This document shows, piece by piece, positions 14,389 through 64,000 of a DNA stretch of 64,000 nucleotides. The translations under genes and the position numbers were made by a program. The notes under the pieces were generated by a model. It saw only the letters and a list, made by a program, of their open reading frames with translations. It was not told the DNA's origin and did no database searches. The stretch spans positions 5,304,341 through 5,368,340 of the forward strand of contig NC_057759.1 of the NCBI RefSeq assembly GCF_004010195.1, read 5' to 3'. The stretch is from Chiloscyllium plagiosum. Its lineage: Eukaryota. Numbering within the stretch: the stretch's first letter is position 1; every line of letters starts with the position of its first letter.

Positions 14389-14607
14389 GAGGAGAAAGTG
14401 AGGACTGCAGATGCTAGAGATCAGAGCTGAAAATGTGTTGCTGGAAAAGCGCAGCAGGTCAGGCAGCATCCAAGGAGCAGGAGAATCGACGTTTCGGGCA
14501 TAAGCCCTTCTTCAGGATTCCTGAAGAAGGGCTTATGCCCGAAACGTCGATTCTCCTGCTCTTGGATGCTGCCTGACCTGCTGCACTTTTCAGCAACACG
14601 TTTTCAG
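14389..14607. mobile_element. Palindromic Penelope-derived insertion with hammerhead cores on both strands
   Basis: Arms 14426-14517 and 14519-14608; 16-bp TSD CAAGTTTTGYACCTTC at 14373-14388 and 14608-14623. Confidence 0.88.
14515..14554 (+). ncRNA. Minimal hammerhead ribozyme motif (mirror copy on minus strand at about 14482-14521)
   Basis: CTGAAGA 14521-14527, extra A, helix II GGGC-TTAT-GCCC, GAAA, palindromic ACGT; predicted cleavage after GTC at 14548. Confidence 0.72.
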
Positions 14608-15560
14608 CAAGTTTTGTACCTTCTCTAGTAGGTACATCCACATACTAAATCAGAAAATTGTCTTGTACACACTTCACAACTTCCTCCCCATTTAAACCCT
14701 TAACGCTATGGCAGTCCCAGTCTATGTTTGGAAAGTTAAAAACCCCTACCATAACCACCCTATCATTCTTACAGATAGCTGAGATCTCCTTTCAAGTTTG
14801 TTTCTCAATTTCCCTCTGACTATTTGCGGGTCTATAATACAATCCCAATACGGTAATCATCCCTTTCTTATTTCTCAGTTCCACCCAAATAAGTTCCCTG
14901 GGTGTATTTCCAGGAATATCCTCCCTCAGCACAGTTTATCAGAAATGCCACTCCCCCCTCCTCTCTTGCCTCCCTTTCTATCCTCTCTGTATCAGCATTT
15001 ATATCCTGAAACATTAAACTGCAAACCTGCCCATCCCTGAGCCATGTTTCTGTAATTGCTATGATATCCCAATCCCAGGTTCTTAACCATGCCCTGAGTT
15101 CATTTGCCTTCCCTGTTAGGACCTTTGCATTGAAATAAATGCAGTTTAATTTATTAGTCCTACCTTGTCCCTGCCTGCCCTGACTGTTTGACTCATTTCT
15201 GTTCTCAACTCTACCAGCCTCAGATTGAGCTCTTTCTTCACAATCTCCCTGTGTCCCATCTTACTAGTGTATATCCTCCCGAGAAGCTCCAGCAAATCTC
15301 CCTGCCTGTATATTAGTACCCTTCCAATTTAGGTGAAATCCGTCCTTCTTGTACAGGTCACTTCTACCCCAAAAGAGATTAAAATGATCCAAAAATGTGA
15401 ACCCTTCTCCCATACACCAGCTCCTCAGCCATGCATTCATCTGCTCTATCCTCCAATTCCTGCCCTCACTAGTTGATAGCACTGGGAGTAATCCAGATAT
15501 TATTACTCTCGAGGACCTCCTTTTTAAAATTCCTGCCTAACTCTCTGTAATCTCCCTTCA

Positions 15561-15677: not shown

Positions 15678-15919
15678 TTTGGTTGGAGCATTGAGTACAA
15701 AAGTCAGGATGTCATATTGCAGCTTTATAAGACTTTGTTTAGGTCATACTTAGAGTATTGTGACAAAAGATTAATTCTGTCCTTCTCAGTTAGTGATAGC
15801 TGAAATGTTTCCTTCAATATCTGTACTCACTATCTACTTCACATATGGTTGCTCAAACATAGTCTATTTGTTCACCTCTGTTGTAACATGAAAAGTATCC
15901 TTACTAAAGTTGAGAACCC

Positions 15920-16645
15920 ATGAGGACAGCCTCAAATTGGGTTCCTGTCACACTACACACACACTCACTCACTCAGACACATACGGACACACTCATGCAG
16001 ACCCTCTCTCATCCACACACTTCCCCTCATACGTGCACACACACGCACACCCCACACTACACCCATCACACTCATAACACACTTTATCAAACATGCACAC
16101 ACAAACACACACATTCACATATGTACTCTCACTCACATGCTCTCTCACTCACTCACTTGTCTCTGGGGTGGATTTGCATTTGCAGAATTATATTTGCAGA
16201 TACATTCTATTTTGCTCAAAAAGAGCACAATCTGCAGGCAGTCAGTCCATGTAATGTTTTATATATTCCTACTTTGGCAATAGAACCAGTCTGACTCAAG
16301 CCTGGGACACCGACAGACTCTAACCTTGCACCTTTAATAATTGTCTGAGCTGAGATGTCACCCTTTTTTAAATAAAACCTGAAGTCATCTTGAGAATGCG
16401 ACTTGAAAGAAGTTCTGGGATGTATATATTAATGGACTGAAACCTGCAACCCATTCTAAAAGATGAAGACTTAACAATCCCAAATCGTTCAATATATCAT
16501 TTCAGTTGCATGACATTGTAATCTTTTGCTATAAATTCTGTGTCTCATGATCCTGTTTCACAGCTACCTGATGAAGGAGCAGCGCTCTGAAAGCTAGTAC
16601 TTCCAAATTAACCTGCTGGACTATAATCTGGTGTTGCATGATTGT
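15920..16645 (+). mobile_element. Second Penelope-like family 3' region (CA-rich tract plus hammerhead)
   Basis: TAC-CTGATGA-A-GGAGCAGCGCTCT-GAAAGCTA-GTA at 16565-16599; terminus ACCTGCTGGACTATAATCTGGTGTTG recurs at 20810, 27030, 39050, 55250 and 61170. Confidence 0.7.
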
Positions 16646-16819
16646 CGCCACATTACAGGAAGAACATGGAGGATTTAGAGAGCGTGCAGAAGAGGTTTGC
16701 CAGAATGTTGTCTAGAGGGTACGAGCTATAAAGAGAAGCTAGAAAAACCCGGGTATATTACTTCTGAGCACCAGAGACTGAGGGCAGACTTAATAGAAGT
16801 CTATAAAATTTTGAGAAGA

Positions 16820-19368
16820 GTTGTAGCTCAGGTTGAGGTTTTGGACCTATTTTTTCTCACTGAGCTGGAAGTTCCATTTTCAGATTTCTTGTCACCATAT
16901 TAGGTAACATTATCAATGAGCCTCCGGATGAAGTACTGGTGGTATGGCCCGCTTTCAATTTATGTGTCCACACATTGGACAAACAGGCAGAAAACTAGCC
17001 ATAAAAAGACATAAGACATAGGAGTGGAAGTAAGGCCATTCGGCCCATCGGGTCCACTCCGCCATTCATTCATGGCTGATGGGCATTTCAACTCCACTTA
17101 CCCGCATTCTCCCCGTAGCCCTTAATTCTTTGTGACATCAAGAATTTATCAATCTCTGCCTTGAAGACATTTAGCGTCCCGGCCTCCACTGCACTCTGCG
17201 GCAATGAATTCCACACACGCTGGCTGAAGAAATGTCTCCGCATTTCTGTTCTGAATTTACTCCCTCTAATTCTAAGGCTGTGTCCACGGGTCCTAGTCTC
17301 CTCGCCTAACGGAAACAATTTCCTAGCGTCTACCCTTTCCAAGCCATGTATTATCTTGTAAGTTTCTATTAGATCTCCCCTTAAGGCTTTATGAATTTTC
17401 TCACTGTTTAGAAAGTAGTCCATGCTAGTATTATTTTTTCCAAAGTGCAAGACCTCGCATTTGCTCACATTGAATTCCATCAGCCATTTCCTGGACCACT
17501 CTCCCAAACTGTCTAGATCCTTCTGCAGCCTCCTCACTTCCTCAGTACTACTTGCCTGTCCACCTAACTTCGTATCATCAGCAAACTTCGCTAGAATGCC
17601 CCCAGTCCCTTCATCTAGATCATTAATATATAACGTGAACAGCTGCGGCCCCAACACTGAACCCTGCGGGACACCTCTTGTCACCGGCTGCCATTCCAAA
17701 AAGGAACCTTTTATCCCAACTCTCTGCCTTCTGTCAGACAGCCAATCCTCAATTCATATCAGTAGCTCACCTCGAACACCATGGGCCCTCACCTTGCTCA
17801 GCTGCCTCCCGTGTGACACCTTATCAAAGGCCTTTTGGAAGTGTAGATAGACCACATCCACTGGGTTTCCCTGGTCTAAACTACTTGTCACCTCTTCAAA
17901 GAATTCCAACAGGTTTGTCAGGCACGACCTCCCCTTACTAAATCCACGTTGACTTATTCTAATCCGACTCTGCTCTTCCAAGAATCTAGAAACCTCATCC
18001 TTAATGATGGATTCTAGAATTTTACCAACAACCGAGGTTAGGCTAATTGGCCTATAATTTTCCATCTTTTGTCTTGATCTTTTCTTAAACAAGGGGGTTA
18101 CAACAGCGATCTTCCAATCATCCGTGACTTTCCCTGACTCCAGTGACTTTTGAAAGATCTCAACCAACGCCTCCGCTATTTCCTCAGCCACCTCCCTCAA
18201 AACTCTAGGATGTAGCCCATCGGGGCCAGGAGATTTTTCAATTTTAAGATCTTTTAGCTTTTCTAGCACTTTCTTTTTTGTAATGGCAACCATACTCAAC
18301 TCAGCCCCCTGACTCCCTTTAATAGTTGGGATATTACTCATGTCTTTCACTGTGAAGACTGACACAAAGTACTTATTAAGTTCTCCAGCTATATCCTTAT
18401 CTCCCATCACTAGGCTTCCAGCATCAGTTTGAAGTGGCCCAATATCTACTTTTGCCTGTTGTTTGTTTCTTATATATTGAAAGAAACTTTTACTATCATT
18501 TCTAATATTACTGGCTAGCCTACCTTCATATTTGATCCTCTCCTCCCTTATTTCTCTCTTTGTTATCCCCTGTTTGTTTTTGTAGCCTTCCCAATCTTCT
18601 GATTTCCCAGTGCTCTTGGCCACTTTATAGGATCTCTCTTTTTCTTTAATACATTTCCAGACTTCCTTTGTCAGCCATGGCTGGTTAATCCCTCCCCGGA
18701 TAATCTTTCTTTTGGGGATGAACCTCTGTACAGTGTCCTCAATTATACCCACAAACTCCTGCCATTTTTGCTCTACTGTCTTCCCCGCTAGGCTCTGCTT
18801 CCAGTCTAGTTTCGTAGGTTCCTCTCTCGTGCCCTCATAATTACCTTTATTTAACTGTAACACCATTACATCCGATTTTGCCTTAGGTAACATTATCAAT
18901 AAGCCTCCAGATGAAGCACTGGTGGTATGGCCCGCTTTCTATTTATGTGTCCACACATTGGACAAACAGGCAGAAAACTAGCCATAAAAAGACATGACTC
19001 ACTCACACTAGTATCCTTACATACAGATGAGGAAGGACACCACTTCAACTGGGACAACACATCCATCCTAGGAAAGGCCAAACAGAGAGACACATGAGAA
19101 TTCCCTGAAGCATGGTATTCCAATCGGAACTCCTTCAAAAAGCACATTGGCTTCGATCCAATTTACCACCCCCAGAGAAAATGAACAGGAAGTGACATCA
19201 CCACAGGAAGTGCCATCACAAACCAAGGAAACCTAAACACATAAATAGGAAGCGAGCCATACCAGCAGTGCTTCATCTGGAGGCTCACTGATGATATTAC
19301 CTCTGTATGGCAATGAAACATCTGAAAACAACCTTCCAGTTCAGCCAGCAAACCTATATCCAGAAGTC
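16820..19368 (+). mobile_element. Penelope-like element remnant (GIY-YIG C-terminus, inverted pLTR-type ends), split by a CR1 insertion
   Basis: HIGQTGRKLA...KRHDSLTLVSLHTDEEGHHFNWDNTSILGKAKQR..EF.EAWYS...KHIGFDPIYHP at 18952-19175; 16830-16968 is the reverse complement of about 19236-19368; decayed hammerhead CTGATGA at 19288. Confidence 0.8.
17013..18882 (-). mobile_element. Young 5'-truncated CR1 LINE (RT) with an internal deletion
   Basis: KSPGPDGLHPRVL, YRPISLTS, FQKAFDKV, GVPQGSVLGP, FADD; TATGTCT tail; flanked by a 113-bp direct repeat. Confidence 0.95.
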
Positions 19369-20882
19369 TATAAAATTGAGATGCATGGTTAAGGTTGATG
19401 GTTCGAACCTTTTTCCAAGAGCTGAAGTGCCTAAAACTAAGAGGCATGCATATAAGGTGAAAGTTCAAGGGAGACCTAAGGTGCAGTTTCTTTTAACGTA
19501 AAGAGTGTTGGAGTGGAACGCACTGCCAGGGGTGGTGATGGAGGCAGATACAATAAAGGTATTGAAGGGACTTAAAAAATAAGCCAATTAACATGCAAGA
19601 AATGGTGGGATATGAACCAAGGACAGGCAGAAGGGATTAATTTCATTTGGCATCAAGTTCGGCACAAAACCGTGGGTTGAAGGACCCATTCCTGTGCTGT
19701 ACTGGTCCAGTTCAGATTTAATGCAATATATATTTCAGATGAGGATTCATTCAAATTGATTGGAACTGGGTCGCAAGCATTGATAATATAGATAAAAAAT
19801 ATAAACTTCTATTTGCTTGATGGTGTTTTACTCTTGTTTTGAACATATCTCTCTGGGACCGGAGCTCAATGTAAGTCTGACTCAATCCACTCTGTGACTG
19901 TGGAAAGGATGTTCTTCGCTCTGACAGCAGTAACATACCTGCTGTTTGTTCGAAGCAGCTGGTCACATTTGGCTCTGTACCGAGGGAATATTACATTATC
20001 TTGGTCCTTTGAGTACTTGCCTGGAGGAAGACAGAAGAGATACCTCCTGTAAATCAACATCAGCTATGATTGGCAACATCAATGTAACATTCAGTTAATG
20101 ATCATTAGGATATTTTGTTTAAAGCCAGCAATTTCAACAGAACCACAGGTCTGATTCCACTCCTGCTCTGAGCTGCTCCTTGTCCATTTTTTCTTAAAAT
20201 TCTAACACCAATTGAGTGAGATTCAGAAACTAAACAACACCCATACAGCTCCATGAATGGGGCCATCTGATACAAGTGAGTATGTGGATATGTGAGTTTA
20301 GTTATTGATCTATACCTGTCAGTTCCTGCTTGGTGAATGTGTGGGTGCAGCTATCAAACTGTAACTTTCGGTATATGGTAAATATATTTACGTATTCACA
20401 CAGCATTAACTGGTCTGGTCTCATTGATAACTAGAGAATCATAAAAATAATACAGCATCGGGGAGGGGGGGCCATTCAGGCCACCTTTTCCATGCCAACG
20501 CCAACACACCCAGGTGCCCTTTCTCATCCCACCATCCTGCCACAGCCCGTAACTTTGCTGTTTACAATACTTGAGGTGCAATTCCAGGGAATTTTTGTTT
20601 AAAAAAATATAAGATCTCTGCCTGCACCACCAAATCAGGCAGCAAATTCCAGATACCCACCACTCTCTACATTATAAAAAAACATTTTTCCTCATATCAT
20701 CTAAGCCTACATCCACTTAGCTTGAATTTGTGATCCCTGGTTTTTGAACTCTCTGTCAAAGTAAACAGGTTCCTCCTGTCTAATGTCTCCCTCTCACGAG
20801 CTAGTTAAAAGTCACACAACATCGTTATGATTCAACAGGTTTATATGGCAAGTTTTCAGAGCACTGCTCCTTCATATTTAGT

Positions 20883-27882: not shown

Positions 27883-28203
<321 letters not shown>

Positions 28204-28235
28204 GAATAAAGCGACCCTTTTCCAGTGAACCCAAA

Positions 28236-28251
28236 GGCTCTTTTCAGAGCC
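28236..28251 (+). terminator. Histone 3' stem-loop (SLBP site) of H4 copy 1
   Basis: CCAAA-GGCTCTTTTCAGAGCC-ACCCA; purine-rich AATAGAGAGCGG (candidate U7 downstream element) at about 28265. Confidence 0.95.
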
Positions 28252-29617
28252 ACCCAAACCCTCCAATAGAGAGCGGAGACCTGAGGACGGGGAAGGCAGT
28301 ACACAATGATGGGATTATTACTGTAGCCGGTTATTTCGCGTTTATCGCGACTTTTAAAATTATTTCGCTTCCAAAAATGTACTAATACCGTGTTCTGAGG
28401 TACGGCAGAGAGCATCGTAACTTGTAATTGTAAATGTAGCAGCAGCATTTGGCCATTCTGTCCATCCAGCTTGTTCTGCCATTTCTGGCTGATATTTCTC
28501 AAACTTCCGCACCCTTCGATCCTCTTTTTTCGTGAATACCTGTCCATCAATGTGTACTTGGCTGTCCATGCCATGAATAATAATTTGATTTTATTTATTG
28601 TGGAACCCAGACATTAACGTTACATATTACAGTATTTATATTTCCCAAGCATAACACTGGGAGCCTGCGGATGTGTTATGGGGCGCGTTCAGGCAGCGAT
28701 TACAAATTTCAATCGGCGGTTTTTCGATTAATTCACGGCGGGTACAGGTTCGGTTGCTCATCCAGAGAGACCAGGAAGCGATGGGGGACATTAATACTGT
28801 ATTTCGATCGGAGGTTAGTTTAAAAACAAAAACGGAAGGCAGCAGTAGTGAATTTGCAACTAATGAGCTTTTCATTCAGGGATTGCAGAAATATAGTAAT
28901 TGGAAGGGTGATTTTCACATCAAATTTTGGTATTGGGTTAGATATTTCTGGAAAAAACCCATCTCCTCATTGACTCCCTTTGCGATAGCATGGCTTTTGG
29001 TGAGGTGGAGGCAGGAGGGAAAGGGAAAAAATGGCGCCAAGAGATCAACAGCTTATTTTCAAATTTGAAAATGCCAGCCATCACGTATAAAAGAGCAGGA
29101 GGTTATACAGAGGAGAATGCATGTACACATTGATTGGTTTTTCGATGACGAAACTAAACTTCACACAATCTCACTTTACCGCATTCCCTCCTTTTACGGC
29201 TGAAAAATGACTGACTGCTGTTGAACACGCTCTCTCCAGAGGTTAACGAAAATAAGAGTGGGTATGAACCGAGCAGACAATAAATTGCAGAGGTGCATGC
29301 TGCAGAAACAGTGGGAGGATTCAGTTTATTGATGCAGTTAAAGGAAATGTGAAGCCAAACTCGATCGGGAACATCCGTGACATTATTCTAAACTCATAGA
29401 ACATTGATCACGCAGGAAGTGACCGTGTACTGACAAATAATGTAGTTCCAAACACTCTTACAATCGTATTCAATGATATAATCTTCCTCTGCTCCCACAT
29501 ACAGTAAAATGGAAATAAAAATTTAGCGATGGCAGGTACAACAGCCAGGGCTCTACATAGTAAAAGTAAAGTAATTCACCCCGACAGAGTTCAACTCCTT
29601 TCGCAGATGCTGTGAGT

Positions 29618-29633
29618 GGCTCTTAAAAGAGCC
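29618..29633 (-). terminator. Histone 3' stem-loop of H2A copy 1
   Basis: GGCTCTTTTAAGAGCC on minus strand; AAAGGAGTTG downstream element at 29592-29601. Confidence 0.95.
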
Positions 29634-29663
29634 TTTGGCTTGTCAGATTCAAGAATACTTTCT

Positions 29664-30290
<627 letters not shown>

Positions 30291-31008
30291 AAACAAAGTA
30301 TGTTTTACCTCAAAAATGAAGTACAAAAAACTGAGGAAGTTCAAAAAAACATTAATATACATGATAATTTACTTTTAGTTTACAAATGTGTACTTCACAC
30401 GGTCTTACTCTCCCACATTTGCCACATTTCTGGTCTTGATAGTGGTTATTTTCTAAACGTTGAGAAGCTGAAACAAAACAGGCCGAACACTGCAATCGGC
30501 AACGTCTTTTATGAGATATGCTCATAAACCAGCACACAACATTCTTCCGGCTCAGCATCGAGCGCGAACGCGTTTTTAAGACGATATTTTAAAGCTGTCC
30601 TTCATCGCTTTCGATCAGATTCAGCAAAAGCTCCACGTTTCAGCCCGGTAGCTGTGTTGGTGTTCCTTCGGTTCGCTTTGAAAGTCTCTCAGGAAGTTTT
30701 ATTTTGCATTGCGAAAAATCGGATCAAACCCGCGTATTGGAAATGTAAAGTAAATCAGAAAGTAAAATGCATTAATCGTGGGACGGAAAGACGTGGGCAT
30801 TTGTCTGCCAGGGGTGAACAAGCAAGATGCAAAATGACTCACTGGCGCCTGATCTGCTCTCCACCACACTCCCGAATAATTTGCAAAGTACTTATTAACA
30901 CAAAAAAATGTAGCACAAGAAGTTAAAATGCCTTATCAAGAATCATATGTAAACTAAAACAAACAGCCCTTAAAGAAATGGTTCAGCTGTCTCAGGGAAA
31001 TTGTGGGT

Positions 31009-31024
31009 GGCTCTTAGAAGAGCC
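31009..31024 (-). terminator. Histone 3' stem-loop of H2B
   Basis: CCAAA-GGCTCTTCTAAGAGCC-ACCCA; GAGACAGCTG downstream element at about 30984-30993. Confidence 0.93.
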
Positions 31025-31065
31025 TTTGGGTTGTGGATGTGTATGTTTCAGTGCAATGCGGTCCT

Positions 31066-31446
31066 TCACTTGGAGCTGGTGTACTTGGTCACCGCCTTTG
31101 TACCCTCCGACACGGCGTGCTTGGCCAGCTCCCCGGGCAGCAGCAGCCGCACGGCGGTCTGGATCTCCCGGGAGCTGATGGTGCTGCGCTTGTTGTAATG
31201 GGCCAGGCGGGAAGCCTCCCCCGCGATGCGCTCGAAAATATCGCTGACGAACGAGTTCATGATGCTCATGGCCTTGGAGGAGATGCCGGTGTCGGGGTGA
31301 ACCTGCTTCATCACTTTGTAGATGTATATGGCGTAACTTTCTTTCCTGGACCGCCTTCTCTTCTTACCGCCCTTCGCTGGCGCCTTCTTGATGATTTTCT
31401 TCGCGCCCTTCTTGGAGGCTTGCTGTGCTTTCTTCTCATCAGCCAT
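31066..31446 (-). CDS. H2B: Histone H2B, replication-dependent
   Basis: 126 aa, [17 protein letters not shown]...[27 protein letters not shown]...[10 protein letters not shown]; ATG at 31446. Confidence 0.98.
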
Positions 31447-31494
31447 AGCGCCACTCACTCTCAGACACAGAATAAGGGAAAGCGGGCTCGGACC

Positions 31495-31612
31495 TCGCTC
31501 TTCATAGACTGACGACGTCATCAATGCTAATGAGGGATGGGGAAAGCCTGGTTTCTGATTGGGTAGTTTACACAGAATCATTCCCCAACATTGAGTCTCT
31601 CTGATTGGTTAG
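31495..31612 (-). promoter_or_regulatory. H2B promoter: variant TATA, CRE-like, octamer variant, two CCAAT
   Basis: TATGAA at 31501-31506; GACGTCA at 31514; ATGCTAAT at 31524-31531 (one mismatch to the Oct-1 octamer typical of H2B); ATTGG at 31558 and 31604. Confidence 0.7.
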
Positions 31613-45309: not shown

Positions 45310-46850
45310 TTTTGGTAATTGTCAATCTAAGTCTGCCAGGTTCTGCTATGTGAGTATGAGAATTTACTTTTTAACAGTCCCTGTTAGTTTTTGCTCCATT
45401 AATGTTTTGTTTAGTTGAGAACCCTTCCCGGTCAGGCTCTGTAATGTAAACATGAGTGCATTTATCAATGCTTGCATGACAGATTTTCTTTTGTGAACAT
45501 GTGAATGTGATTATCAATTTTCCCTGGTAGTTTCTGCTCTGTGAATATGAAAATGTAGTTATTAATCTCTAAATGAAAACCAAAAGAACTGCAAATGCTG
45601 GAAATCAGAAACTAAAACAAATTGCTGGAAAATCTCAGCAGGTCGGACAGAGTCTGTGGACAGAAATCAGCGTTAAAATTTCCAGTCTAGTAACCCTTCC
45701 TGTGAAGAGATGGTAGCCAGGAAAATATTAGATTTTCTGCAGAAGATAGGGTGTGTTGAAGGGTAAGGGAGTGAATGGTGAATGGATATAGAACCAAAGA
45801 GAGAGAAGAACAGTTGAACAGAAAAACTAGTGGATCACAGTCAGATGAGGATAATAATAGCTATTAATAGAGACTGTTAGTGAGTTTTGGTGTACAATAG
45901 AAGACCATATGATAACACTGCATGGTGAGAGAGGTTTTGGGTAATGATACGGGAGAGCTCTCGCTCTAAAGTTGTAGACTTCAATAATGCGTCCAGAAGG
46001 CTGTTGAGTTCCCAAGCAGAAAATGAAGTGATGTTCTTCCAGCTTGCACTGAACTTTGCTGGAGCACTGCAGCAAGCCTGAGACAGAGATGTTGGCCAGG
46101 GAACTGGGTGGTGTGTTGAAGTGGCATGCAACTAGAAGCTCAGGGACATTTTTTTCTGGACAGAATGTAGGTGCTCTGCACAGTGGACACCCAATCTACA
46201 CTCAGTTTTGCCAACATAGAGAAGACCAAATGGTAGCTAGGAAAATGCACACAATCAGTTCTGAGGAGGGGTCAGTAGACCTCAAATGTTAAGTCTGATT
46301 TCCCAGCACCAATGCTGCCAAATCTGTGGATTTTCCAGCAATTTTTGTTATTAATTTCTACCTGTCAGTTTCTGTGCTGTAAACATGAGTGTCATTTATC
46401 AAACTGTACATGTCAATGTATGCGATTTGAAACAGGGAGTGTTATTACTCTGTTCCAATAAGTTTTGATGATGAGAATGTTGTTATCAGTCTTCCTCTGA
46501 GATGTCCTGCCATGTGCATGATTGACCAATATGTCCCTGTTATATTCTGCTCTGGGTATCTCAGGATGGAGTTATGAATCTGTATCTGTCAGCATCTTAT
46601 TTATAAATGTGTAAATGTATTAACCAGACTGTAGCTGCCAATGTTTGCTCAGTGAATGTGTTAGTTTAGTTGTGTATGTGAGTGTGTGTATGTATGTGTT
46701 TATGTATCATTCACTCCCTTTCAGTTTCTGCAGAGTGAATATGTAAGAGCAGCTATCAATCTACACCGGTCAGTTTCTGTTGTGTCCACATGGGTGTTTT
46801 GGAATTGATCTATACTTGTCAGTTTCTGCTGTGTGCCTGTGAGTGTCAAG
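45310..46850 (+). repeat. Decayed minisatellite, interrupted by a Penelope-like element
   Basis: Same unit as 9650 and 33665. Confidence 0.7.
45575..46348 (-). mobile_element. Penelope-like element 3' portion with inverted terminal copy
   Basis: LQCSSKVQCKLEEHHFIFCLGTQQPSGRIIEVYNFR resembles the PLE endonuclease C-terminus; 46258-46348 is an inverted copy of 45610-45705 with a decayed CTGAGGA hammerhead. Confidence 0.75.
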
Positions 46851-52905: not shown

Positions 52906-53053
52906 TGCCCTTGTTTTTCCCATAGACCGTAACAATATCCAATTAAATGGAGCGTGGAATTCATTGATATCCGATACAAAGGCGAGAGCTCTCCCCATTA
53001 AAAGTAAACTAATCAATCCAGAGAGTTTAGCTCCTTTCACAGATGCTGTGAGT

Positions 53054-53069
53054 GGCTCTTAAAAGAGCC
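53054..53069 (-). terminator. Histone 3' stem-loop of H2A copy 2
   Basis: GGCTCTTTTAAGAGCC; AAAGGAGCT downstream element. Confidence 0.95.
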
Positions 53070-53099
53070 TTTTGGCAGTCAGATCCAAGAATGTCCGCT

Positions 53100-53504
<405 letters not shown>

Positions 53505-53547
53505 TCAAACACTTTCAGAGAGAATGGTGCACTCCGCCCACATTACG

Positions 53548-53712
53548 GTCTCTTATACCTTCGGGAGGAATGGTGGGGGGGCCGTTTCTGATTGGTCCCA
53601 TTGTCCAGCCCCTCCTAATGTTGTTCCAATTCCCCAATCCGGAGGGGGCCCGGGGAGGAGGGCGGAAAGTCCAGGCGCTAAATAATCAACCGTTTTTTAA
53701 AACTTGAAAAGC
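53548..53712 (-). promoter_or_regulatory. H2A copy 2 promoter
   Basis: TATAA and CCAAT boxes homologous to 30110-30290; truncated by an N gap. Confidence 0.7.
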
Positions 53713-54212
53713 NNNNNNNNNNNNNNNNNNNNNNNNNNNNNNNNNNNNNNNNNNNNNNNNNNNNNNNNNNNNNNNNNNNNNNNNNNNNNNNNNNNNNNNN
53801 NNNNNNNNNNNNNNNNNNNNNNNNNNNNNNNNNNNNNNNNNNNNNNNNNNNNNNNNNNNNNNNNNNNNNNNNNNNNNNNNNNNNNNNNNNNNNNNNNNNN
53901 NNNNNNNNNNNNNNNNNNNNNNNNNNNNNNNNNNNNNNNNNNNNNNNNNNNNNNNNNNNNNNNNNNNNNNNNNNNNNNNNNNNNNNNNNNNNNNNNNNNN
54001 NNNNNNNNNNNNNNNNNNNNNNNNNNNNNNNNNNNNNNNNNNNNNNNNNNNNNNNNNNNNNNNNNNNNNNNNNNNNNNNNNNNNNNNNNNNNNNNNNNNN
54101 NNNNNNNNNNNNNNNNNNNNNNNNNNNNNNNNNNNNNNNNNNNNNNNNNNNNNNNNNNNNNNNNNNNNNNNNNNNNNNNNNNNNNNNNNNNNNNNNNNNN
54201 NNNNNNNNNNNN
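53713..54212. other. Assembly gap (500 N) between H2A copy 2 and H4 copy 2
   Basis: N run; another 12-N gap at 54847-54858. Confidence 1.
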
Positions 54213-54228
54213 GTCGGAGGGTTTGGGT

Positions 54229-54244
54229 GGCTCTGAAAAGAGCC
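54229..54244 (-). terminator. Histone 3' stem-loop of H4 copy 2
   Basis: GGCTCTTTTCAGAGCC-ACCCA on minus strand; downstream element falls in the N gap. Confidence 0.95.
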
Positions 54245-54276
54245 TTTGGGTTCGTTCGAAAAGGGTCGTTTTATGC

Positions 54277-54597
<321 letters not shown>

Positions 54598-62630: not shown

Positions 62631-64000
62631 TGTAATATTCCCTCGGTACAGAGCCAGGTGTGACCAGCTGCTTCGAACAAACAGCAGGTATGTTACTGCG
62701 ACCAGAGCGAAGAACATCCTTTCCAGAGTCAGAGTGGATTGAGTCAGACTTACATTGAGCTCCATTCCCAGAGAAATATGTTCAAAACAAGAGTCAAATA
62801 CCATTAAGGAAATAGAAGTTTATATTTTTTTATCTATATTATCAATGCTTGCGACCCAGTTCCAATCAATTTGAATGAATCCTCATCCGAAATATACACT
62901 GCATTAAATCTGAATTGGACCAGTACAGCACAGGAATGGGTCCTACAGCCTACAATGTTGTGCTGAACCTGACGCCAAATGAAATTAATCCCTTCTGCCT
63001 GTCCTTGGTTCATATCCCACCATTTCTTGCATGTTAATTGGCTTATTTTTAAGTCCCTTCAATACCTTTATTGTATCTGCCTCCATCACCCACCCCTGGC
63101 AGTGCGTTCCACTCCTAACACTCTTTACGTTAATAGAAACTGCACCTTAGGTCTCCCTTGAACTTTCACCTTATATGCATGCCCCTTAGTTTTAGGCATT
63201 TCAACTCTTGGAAAAAGATTCGAACCATCAACCTTAACCATGCATCTCAATTTTATAGACTTCTGGATATAGGTTTGCTGGCTGAACTGGAAGGTTTGTT
63301 TTCAGATGTTTCATTGCCATACAGAGGTAATATCATCAGTGAGCCTCCAGATGAAGCACTAGCTTTCAGAGCGCTGCTCGTTCACCAGGCGGTTGTGGAG
63401 CATAAGATCATGAGGCACAGAATTTATAGCAAAAGATTACAATGTCATGCAACTGAAATGATATATTGAATGATTTGGGATTGTTAAGTCTTCATCTTTT
63501 AGATGAAGGTTTCAGTCCATTAATATATACATCCCAGAACATCTTTTAAGTCACATTCTCAAGATGACTTTAGGTTTTATTTAAAAAAGGGTGACATCTC
63601 AGCTAAGCTCAGACAATGTATTAAAGATGTGAGGTTAGAGTCTGTCTGTGTCCCAGTCTTGAGTCAGACTGGTTCTATTGCCAAAGTAGGAATATATAAA
63701 ACATCACATGGACTGACTGCCTGCAGGTTGTGCTCTTTTTGAGCAAAGTAGAATGTATCTGCAAATATAATTCTGCAAATGCAAATTCACCCCAGAGACA
63801 AGTGAGTGAGTGAGAGTACATATGCGAATGTGTGTGTTTGTGTGTGCATGCCTGATAAAGCGTGTTATGAGTGTGATTGTGTCAGCCTGAGGATGGGTGT
63901 AGTGTGGGCTAAGTGTGTGGATGAGAGAGGGTCTGCATGAGTGTGTGCGTGTGTGTCTGAGTGAGAATGTGTGTAGTGTGACAGGATCCCAATCTGAGGC

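Follow-up and report, generated by a model that had tools for sequence, protein, structure and literature searches.

Predicted minimal type I hammerheads at the ends of decayed Penelope-like elements in the shark Chiloscyllium plagiosum

Introduction

Metazoan Penelope-like elements (PLEs), including the Poseidon and Neptune elements of fish, carry minimal hammerheads in their pseudo-long terminal repeats (pLTRs), as described by Cervera and De la Pena (2014; PMC4209133). Here we describe hammerhead motifs in a 64,000-nucleotide stretch of the Chiloscyllium plagiosum genome (the window; all coordinates are positions within it), which we analysed by sequence and with RNA-read data. An earlier note had proposed that dissimilar repeat families in this window keep one hammerhead architecture. 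We conclude that the motifs are very probably minimal type I hammerheads, and predicted ribozymes, in the pLTRs of truncated, broken PLEs of three lineages. The shark motifs share with those in PMC4209133 the type I core, an extra base between positions 9 and 10.1, the G10.1-C11.1 pair, and a palindromic 15.2-16.2 segment, as well as the predominance of solo truncated copies and the presence of opposite-strand pairs. The arrangement is thus of a kind described in 2014, when several dissimilar consensus families per genome and compensatory changes were already reported. The present work adds shark examples; we found no shark named in the available text of PMC4209133, and its supplements may list shark motifs. 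Helices are shorter in the shark (helix I, 3-4 pairs; helix II, 4-6 pairs) than in Schistosoma (4-5 and 7-8 pairs, respectively; PMC4209133).

Two further systems bear on these motifs. The Poseidon element PAc of the lizard Anolis carolinensis has a hammerhead that cuts only with protein and is inactivated by core mutations; cleavage is not needed for insertion in vitro, where reverse transcription starts internally on uncut RNA (Frangieh et al., 2024; PMC11167929). PAc resembles the shark elements in that its open reading frame (ORF) begins within the hammerhead, where stem II has its foot; in both, genomic copies also have two downstream end points (the tail), and no reads end at the cut. 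Shark family 3 differs from PAc in its 18-base stem II region and in its sequence. Non-LTR retrozymes, which carry type I hammerheads from PLE pLTRs and have been reported in one cartilaginous fish, consist of a single non-coding unit repeated in tandem (Li et al., 2026; bioRxiv 10.64898/2026.07.22.740005), whereas the window copies are dispersed ends of coding elements. A retrozyme identity was rejected, because the copies are dispersed or inverted and the sole head-to-tail pair (63.3 kb) joins two families and has one broken core.

Results

Hammerhead motifs of the window

The motifs considered here are:
16565-16599, plus strand: family-2 minimal hammerhead; core complete, G-U at 10.1/11.1, predicted cut 16596/16597
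19285-19325, plus strand: decayed minimal hammerhead of family 3, without the palindrome and the in-hammerhead ATG; cut predicted at 19322/19323
45607-45714, minus strand: family-4 pLTR with a decayed hammerhead, about 250 bases downstream of its own endonuclease remnant
46251-46359, plus strand: family-4 pLTR, inverted, carrying the fourth hammerhead type; core at about 46261
63302-63342, minus strand: family-3 hammerhead paralogue; region 97% identical to 19267-19625
63353-63395, minus strand: family-2 hammerhead paralogue with mutated core, joined to family 3 via a shared 8-base word

The core CUGANGA ... GAAA ... UH is complete at 16568 and 19288. The family-2 motif consists of TAC (16565-67), CTGATGA (16568-74), the extra A (16575), GGAGC/AGC/GCTCT (16576-88), GAA, AGCT (16592-95), A17 (16596), and GTA (16597-99), so that the core, AGCT palindrome, CUA triplet, and TAC/GTA helix I claimed for position 16565 are all found there. 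The family-3 motif likewise lies where it had been placed, with TCA at 19285-87, the core at 19288-94, an extra T, helix II at 19296-19314, GAA, ACAT, C17 at 19322, and TGA at 19323-25. This copy has ACAT in place of the palindrome, an A-C mismatch in helix II, A-U for G10.1-C11.1, and ATA where ATG is expected, together with a one-base insertion.

Other proposals in the earlier note stood only in part. The family-2 paralogue at 63358-63392 has the CGC/GTG arms attributed to it, but it is not an intact hammerhead, owing to a change at A6 (core CTGGTGA) and to a broken pair in helix II. Similarly, TAC/GTA against CAC/GTG is a real subfamily difference, whereas the CGC of this paralogue is a one-sided decay of CAC. 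The fourth decayed type at 46258 is present, with an inverted partner at 45714-45607 and a broken core (CAAA for GAAA), but it is not a separate lineage, since it clusters with family 1. The hammerhead copies of the window are likely inert.

Families 2 and 3 are fused near 63.3 kb at an 8-base word common to both (63353-63360, minus strand), the first base of which is the family-2 cut-site base; all sequence between the two hammerheads is lost. Identity to the 16-19 kb copy is 87% for the left arm and 97% for the right, which suggests recombination between paralogues. We rejected this pair as a working double ribozyme: comparison with paralogues marks it as the product of a deletion or recombination, one of its cores is broken, and the arms are mismatched between families.

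The architecture exceeds chance expectation

Matches to the bare core pattern numbered 14 in the window compared to 9.2 expected, a count reached in 6 of 100 shuffles and unconvincing alone. The full descriptor, which was chosen after these motifs had been seen, requires the core with a single extra base, 4 of 5 pairs in helix II, 3 pairs in helix I, and the NUH triplet; it matched 4 times in the window versus 0.01 expected. In a genome sample (964 kb without N) made up of 100 10-kb stretches of contigs C1-C33, which were picked at round coordinates, this descriptor matched 31 times, and 0 times in 20 shuffles. A descriptor lacking the extra base missed most motifs and was discarded.

Selection on core letters only, which avoids selecting on pairing, gave 99 motifs where 10 were expected. 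Helix cells were paired in 81% of cases in this set, compared to 61% with the 3' arms shuffled (at most 65.5% in 1000 shuffles). Leaving out the extra base breaks the register: pairing at helix II positions 1 and 4 then drops to 21% and 11%, respectively. The unpaired base between A9 and 10.1 was A in 86 of the 99 motifs and T in 10. Among the 31 descriptor matches of the sample, the 10.1-11.1 pair was G-C in 19 and G-T in 10, and the palindromic tetramer 15.1-16.1 was present in 27; the tetramer is kept at 16592-95 and lost at 19318-21. The pairing in the core-only set, together with the subfamily comparison below, bears out the claim that the motifs reflect real RNA structure. The selection behind the helix pairing acted on the progenitor elements and not on these decayed copies.

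A profile search found 320 copies in the 964-kb sample, 236 of them covering the whole motif, and 26 in the window. Rough extrapolation to the 3.56-Gb genome (from 236 and 31 per 964 kb) gives ~870,000 remnants and ~114,000 descriptor-complete motifs, compared to ~4,000 motifs in coelacanth and ~9,000 in Xenopus, published counts that were obtained with another descriptor (PMC4209133).

Three lineages change their helices in pairs

Clustering of the 99 core-only motifs by the sequence behind the motif gave clusters of 67, 17, and 6 and 9 singletons, 2 of which could be assigned by eye to these families. Families 1 and 4 have a homologous tail and fall into a common cluster, which implies three independent lineages rather than four. 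The proposal of dissimilar families with one hammerhead architecture therefore holds for three lineages, although not for the count of four. All three lineages retain the core with a single extra base behind A9, a four-base palindrome, a short helix I, and a helix II of 4-6 pairs.

In 11 subfamily majorities (88 cells; some groups have 1-3 members), own arms paired in 79 of 88 cells, compared to 37% when arms were mixed across lineages; the family consensus sequences thus have paired helices. Across these majorities, the first helix I pair is C-G, A-T, or T-A, the second T-A, C-G, or A-T, and the third T-A, C-G, or G-C. The third pair also varies within families: among 51 parsed family-3 copies (92 collected) it is T-A in 33, C-G in 8, and G-C in 6, and among 73 family-2 copies it is C-G in 42, T-G in 19, T-A in 8, and C-A in 1. 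Helix letters change in pairs between lineages while the core persists.

The motifs adjoin Penelope-like endonuclease sequences

Three endonuclease remnants stand beside the motifs:
15907-15956, plus strand: frameshifted end (~17 codons) of the GIY-YIG endonuclease of family 2 (Neptune-type); its translation agrees with P0022, L114, L119, and L120 at their C-termini
18954-19178, plus strand: Poseidon-type GIY-YIG endonuclease remnant, from the motif's second half on, with a 9-residue deletion and one stop
45965-46141, minus strand: family-4 (Neptune-type) endonuclease C-terminal remnant; longer copies show the GIY-YIG motif

The tie to Penelope coding sequence that the earlier note had drawn was shown for families 2, 3, and 4 through adjacent frames for reverse transcriptase (RT) or GIY-YIG endonuclease. 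The GIY-YIG remnant reported upstream of family 3 is a C-terminal remnant (18954-19178) that aligns to the endonuclease of P0009 with 52% identity over 84 columns (E 2e-22); a first look at the genome gave 54,093 candidates for it. The family-3 hammerhead lies 67-133 bases downstream of the endonuclease in 27 of 35 full matches (L061-L090, which include the window copy and its duplicates, three in all), and a longer homologous frame (L088) matches Pfam PF01541 (GIY-YIG) above the curated cut-off. Pfam did not recognise the short endonuclease remnants of the window or the L119 pieces; longer homologous frames were needed. A search with the short family-3 peptide gave a single match, to a mis-annotated shark protein.

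Family 2 has at least 3,403 candidates in the genome. In the window, its last endonuclease codons lie ~610 bases upstream of the hammerhead; this match was made by eye, as tblastn of P0022 against the window did not report it. Longer family-2 copies, such as L119, show the GIY-YIG motif and a CX4CX2C linker, and full RT-endonuclease relatives occur in other sharks. For family 4, the GIY-YIG motif was found in four of six longer copies, with a clear linker in L305, and the hammerhead lies 232-267 bases downstream of the endonuclease in three longer copies, as in the window. The 46258 motif belongs to the inverted upstream copy of the family-4 element. Relatives that combine RT with a GIY-YIG domain at the C-terminus are P0002 (89%) and P0022 (65%), as well as P0009 and P0020; the closest protein relatives of the window elements come from carpet sharks (89% to a Stegostoma protein), and the window itself holds endonuclease remnants only. 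The order of RT followed by GIY-YIG is that of endonuclease-bearing (EN+) PLEs (Craig et al., 2021; PMC8557442).

The CX2-5CxxC linker described in PMC8557442 is present in families 2 and 4, as in Neptune, and not in family 3, as in Penelope/Poseidon. The CX4CX2C form occurs in all three parsable family-2 relatives (P0020, P0022, P0023) and in none of six family-3 relatives, which by the criterion of PMC8557442 implies that family 3 belongs to the Penelope/Poseidon clade. Nematis has the linker too (PMC8557442), and the Neptune label here rests on the linker rather than on a tree. BLASTP of family-2 and family-3 proteins detected no significant similarity in the stretch that was compared. We conclude that family 2 (16565) is the end of a Neptune-type element, that family 3 (19285) is the end of a Poseidon-type element, and that the 46258 type is another Neptune-type lineage related to family 1.

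Three proteins of the liver fluke Opisthorchis (P0004, P0011, P0012) are 50-56% identical to a shark family-3 protein fragment, raising the possibility of horizontal transfer of Poseidon-type elements.

Start codon inside the family-3 hammerhead

In family 3, A9, the extra T, and G10.1 form an ATG. Of 20 loci identified with the P0009 N-terminus, three (L257, L263, L265) have a frame that opens at this ATG and continues into RT without a stop. At a fourth locus it is in register with RT and contains stops, and most of the others are truncated earlier. ATG is present at the hammerhead site in 49 of 63 parsed family-3 copies, and its frame is open in 44 of these 63, compared to 4 and 9 for the other frames. 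The in-hammerhead ATG accounts for the extra base being U in the Poseidon-type motif and A in the Neptune types. The in-hammerhead start codon of Anolis Poseidon thus also occurs in shark Poseidon-type elements, which is useful for the question of what role PLE hammerheads have.

A used poly(A) site behind the family-2 hammerhead

The family-2 end comprises, besides the hammerhead:
15957-16564, plus strand: 3' untranslated region, CA-rich stretch, and upstream part of the pLTR, by homology to dispersed family-2 copies
16606-16626, plus strand: poly(A) signal position (AATTAA, mutated here) and poly(A) addition site (16623-16626) used by other copies
16627-16643, plus strand: tail continuation, GU-rich, and end of the element copy

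RNA data came from one single-cell poly(A) run of one sample, of which 2% was read; sense orientation was assumed from the library type and is supported by A-runs on the plus strand. The reads derive from other copies than that of the window, as only 33 of 2,263 reads on 16500-16679 are at least 95% alike to it and none 99%. Sense depth over the family-2 hammerhead was ~1,000-1,300, uncut, and fell to 851 at 16614-19, 110 at 16626-31, and 40 beyond, with 247 reads departing into an A-run at 16623 and 334 at 16626. In 1,034 of 1,050 reads an A stands at 16609, giving AATAAA or ATTAAA at 16606-11. Family-2 transcripts in this sample are therefore polyadenylated 27-30 bases past the predicted cut, after AATAAA or ATTAAA. 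Genomic family-2 copies in the 964-kb sample have the hexamer in 36 of 40 cases and an A-run after it in 0 of 40, indicating that the tail is added to RNA.

The new detail is thus a used poly(A) site ~30 bases behind the family-2 hammerhead, an arrangement in which a cut would remove the poly(A) tail. At +27 to +30, the site lies short of the ends of genomic copies (+50 to +110) and upstream of the element start codon (+92), and a GU-rich stretch follows it. Such a stretch behind the site is usual for ordinary poly(A) sites. We found no mention of a used site of this kind in the available text of PMC8557442 and no paper on a poly(A) signal in PLE repeats; our search covered few subscription papers and not the original description of Penelope, so that such a signal may be published.

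It is rather doubtful, though conceivable, that the family-2 end repeat acts as a hammerhead-plus-poly(A) switch. Most transcripts entering the repeat would then be polyadenylated past the uncut hammerhead, which would hold down the supply of full-length, copy-competent RNA, and cleavage by the hammerhead would remove the tail from RNA that ends there. If so, the ~170,000 family-2 copies of the genome (a rough figure from 47 per 964 kb) would form a genome-wide stock of ready poly(A) sites in sharks, each with a conditional self-destruct element just upstream, and some might end host transcripts.

Among 20 loci retrieved with an N-terminal piece of P0022, three (L269, L271, L272) also have a family-2 hammerhead upstream of the reading frame, 92 bases before the start codon. 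In these three loci, a T-rich stretch of the 5' untranslated region, located ~40-75 bases past the cut, ends in CAG and resembles a splice acceptor; an intron over the hammerhead and poly(A) site would account for expression of the ORF.

Genomic ends and a possible mechanism

Genomic 3' ends of each family form two groups, 30-40 bases apart, downstream of the cut. Only 6 of 310, 1 of 62, and 0 of 25 copies end within 5 bases of the predicted cut, which rules out insertions that end at the cut site. Inverted upstream copies are present at 16839-16967 (minus strand) and 46251-46359 (plus strand). Together with 5' truncation and the two groups of 3' ends, they match the 5' truncation, inverted upstream copy, and 30-40-base tail of EN+ PLEs (PMC8557442). 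In family 1, 5' starts are slightly in excess just past the predicted cut, with 7 of 211 tailed copies starting at +2.

These observations suggest a slow, conditional self-cut that would process or disable the element RNA and that was selected in progenitors and is decaying in copies. The progenitor motif would cut its own RNA slowly, either as a palindrome-paired dimer of the repeat or helped by an element protein; cleavage as a dimer and low activity have been described (PMC4209133; reviewed in PMC6765202). Dimer formation would be confined to members of one family, given that each lineage has its own helix I and palindrome. New copies would arise by reverse transcription starting 40-110 bases downstream on uncut RNA, as suggested by the published work, so that genomic copies keep the whole hammerhead and a tail of two lengths, often with an inverted copy ahead. 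In family 3, a cut would sever the start of the reading frame; a role of the cut as a brake or in processing is therefore more probable than one that copying requires.

Discussion

Several results weigh against reading the motifs as hammerheads of PLEs that cut. An Rfam scan of the window gave 10 matches at E up to 1 and none to a hammerhead model. Folding of four window copies was no better than that of shuffles (z +0.14, -0.35, -0.73, and -0.49), and the best fold of the family-2 monomer is not the hammerhead. Cofolding of two copies gave the double hammerhead for 0 of 5 copies, with a nested-fold program that may represent this form poorly. No pile of read ends was listed at the predicted cut in the poly(A)-primed library, which selects uncut RNA. 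Clades were assigned by the linker motif and not by a tree with reference elements, and the open ATG frames belong to subfamily 3c, whereas the window copy belongs to 3a. Finally, copy counts represent related copies rather than independent events, so that a Fisher p of 0.0015 for family 2 overstates the support. As single copies fold no better than shuffles, the support for the structure is comparative, not thermodynamic.

The most probable alternative, which we nevertheless consider unlikely, is that the motif serves the element as a conserved RNA structure, for instance as a signal for protein binding or for a start site, and that it is shaped like a hammerhead yet cuts rarely or never in the cell. 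Uncut sense reads across the family-2 site and the lack of a listed read-end pile agree with this alternative, although poly(A)-primed reads select uncut RNA. Likewise, the dispensability of cleavage for insertion in vitro and the absence of reads ending at the site in Anolis Poseidon (PMC11167929), as well as the low activity reported in PMC4209133, would fit such a structure. However, the catalytic letters and the NUH triplet are kept in all three lineages despite varying helices, and the Anolis Poseidon hammerhead does cut with protein and loses this cut in core mutants (PMC11167929). Predicted ribozymes remain our preferred interpretation.

It is very unlikely that the copies have been co-opted by the histone gene cluster of this region as working ribozymes or poly(A) signals. 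The family-2/family-3 block does recur in numerous segmental duplicates along this contig, most of which have kept an intact family-2 core. However, these duplicates are 80-95% alike and show ordinary decay, core changes included, the family-3 palindrome is lost, and the poly(A) hexamer of the window is mutated. Moreover, the few reads at least 95% alike to 16500-16679 (33 of 2,263, none at 99%) argue against use of this copy. A chance likeness among unrelated repeats, to which the mild enrichment of the bare core (14 versus 9.2) and the lack of an Rfam match might point, is almost certainly excluded by the descriptor counts, the core-only pairing, the cross-lineage comparison, and the fixed place of the motif relative to the Penelope-like frame in each lineage.

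Other features of the window

Between 15.9 and 19.4 kb, the family-2 end is followed by a short stretch of other repeat sequence and then by the family-3 insertion, which is composed of the inverted repeat (16839-16967), the endonuclease remnant, and the 3' repeat. The remaining features of this block are:
16839-16967, minus strand: family-3 pLTR copy, inverted and decayed, 5' end of the family-3 insertion
16900-17012, plus strand: 113-bp direct duplication around a long interspersed nuclear element (LINE), copy one; 96.5% identical to 18883-18995 and single in paralogues without the LINE
17013-18882, minus strand: LINE, 5'-truncated, with reverse-transcriptase frames (ORFs 17088-17753 and 17754-18938), inside the family-3 element
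18883-18995, plus strand: 113-bp direct duplication, copy two
19326-19365, plus strand: family-3 tail; first ORF codons in full elements

The LINE, which we take to be CR1-like, was found in the window copy only; L002, L004, L009, and other paralogues lack it and have an uninterrupted block. The flanking 113-base duplication is unusually long for a target-site duplication, and the LINE tail and the target have several bases in common. About 35,000 RNA reads from one other locus map to a short 3' stretch of the LINE (17078-17117), which implies that a highly expressed transcript bears a related LINE piece.

The window region is rich in segmental duplicates. Histone H4, H2A, and H2B genes with 3' stem-loops lie at 27883-31608 and 53029-54597, and the window forms part of a duplicated histone cluster; the ORFs are ones that we recognised as presumable histone genes, and the Rfam scan gave five histone stem-loop matches. 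Two family-1 hammerheads form a head-to-head palindrome at 14425-14608, which accounts for a spurious mir-680 match in the same scan.

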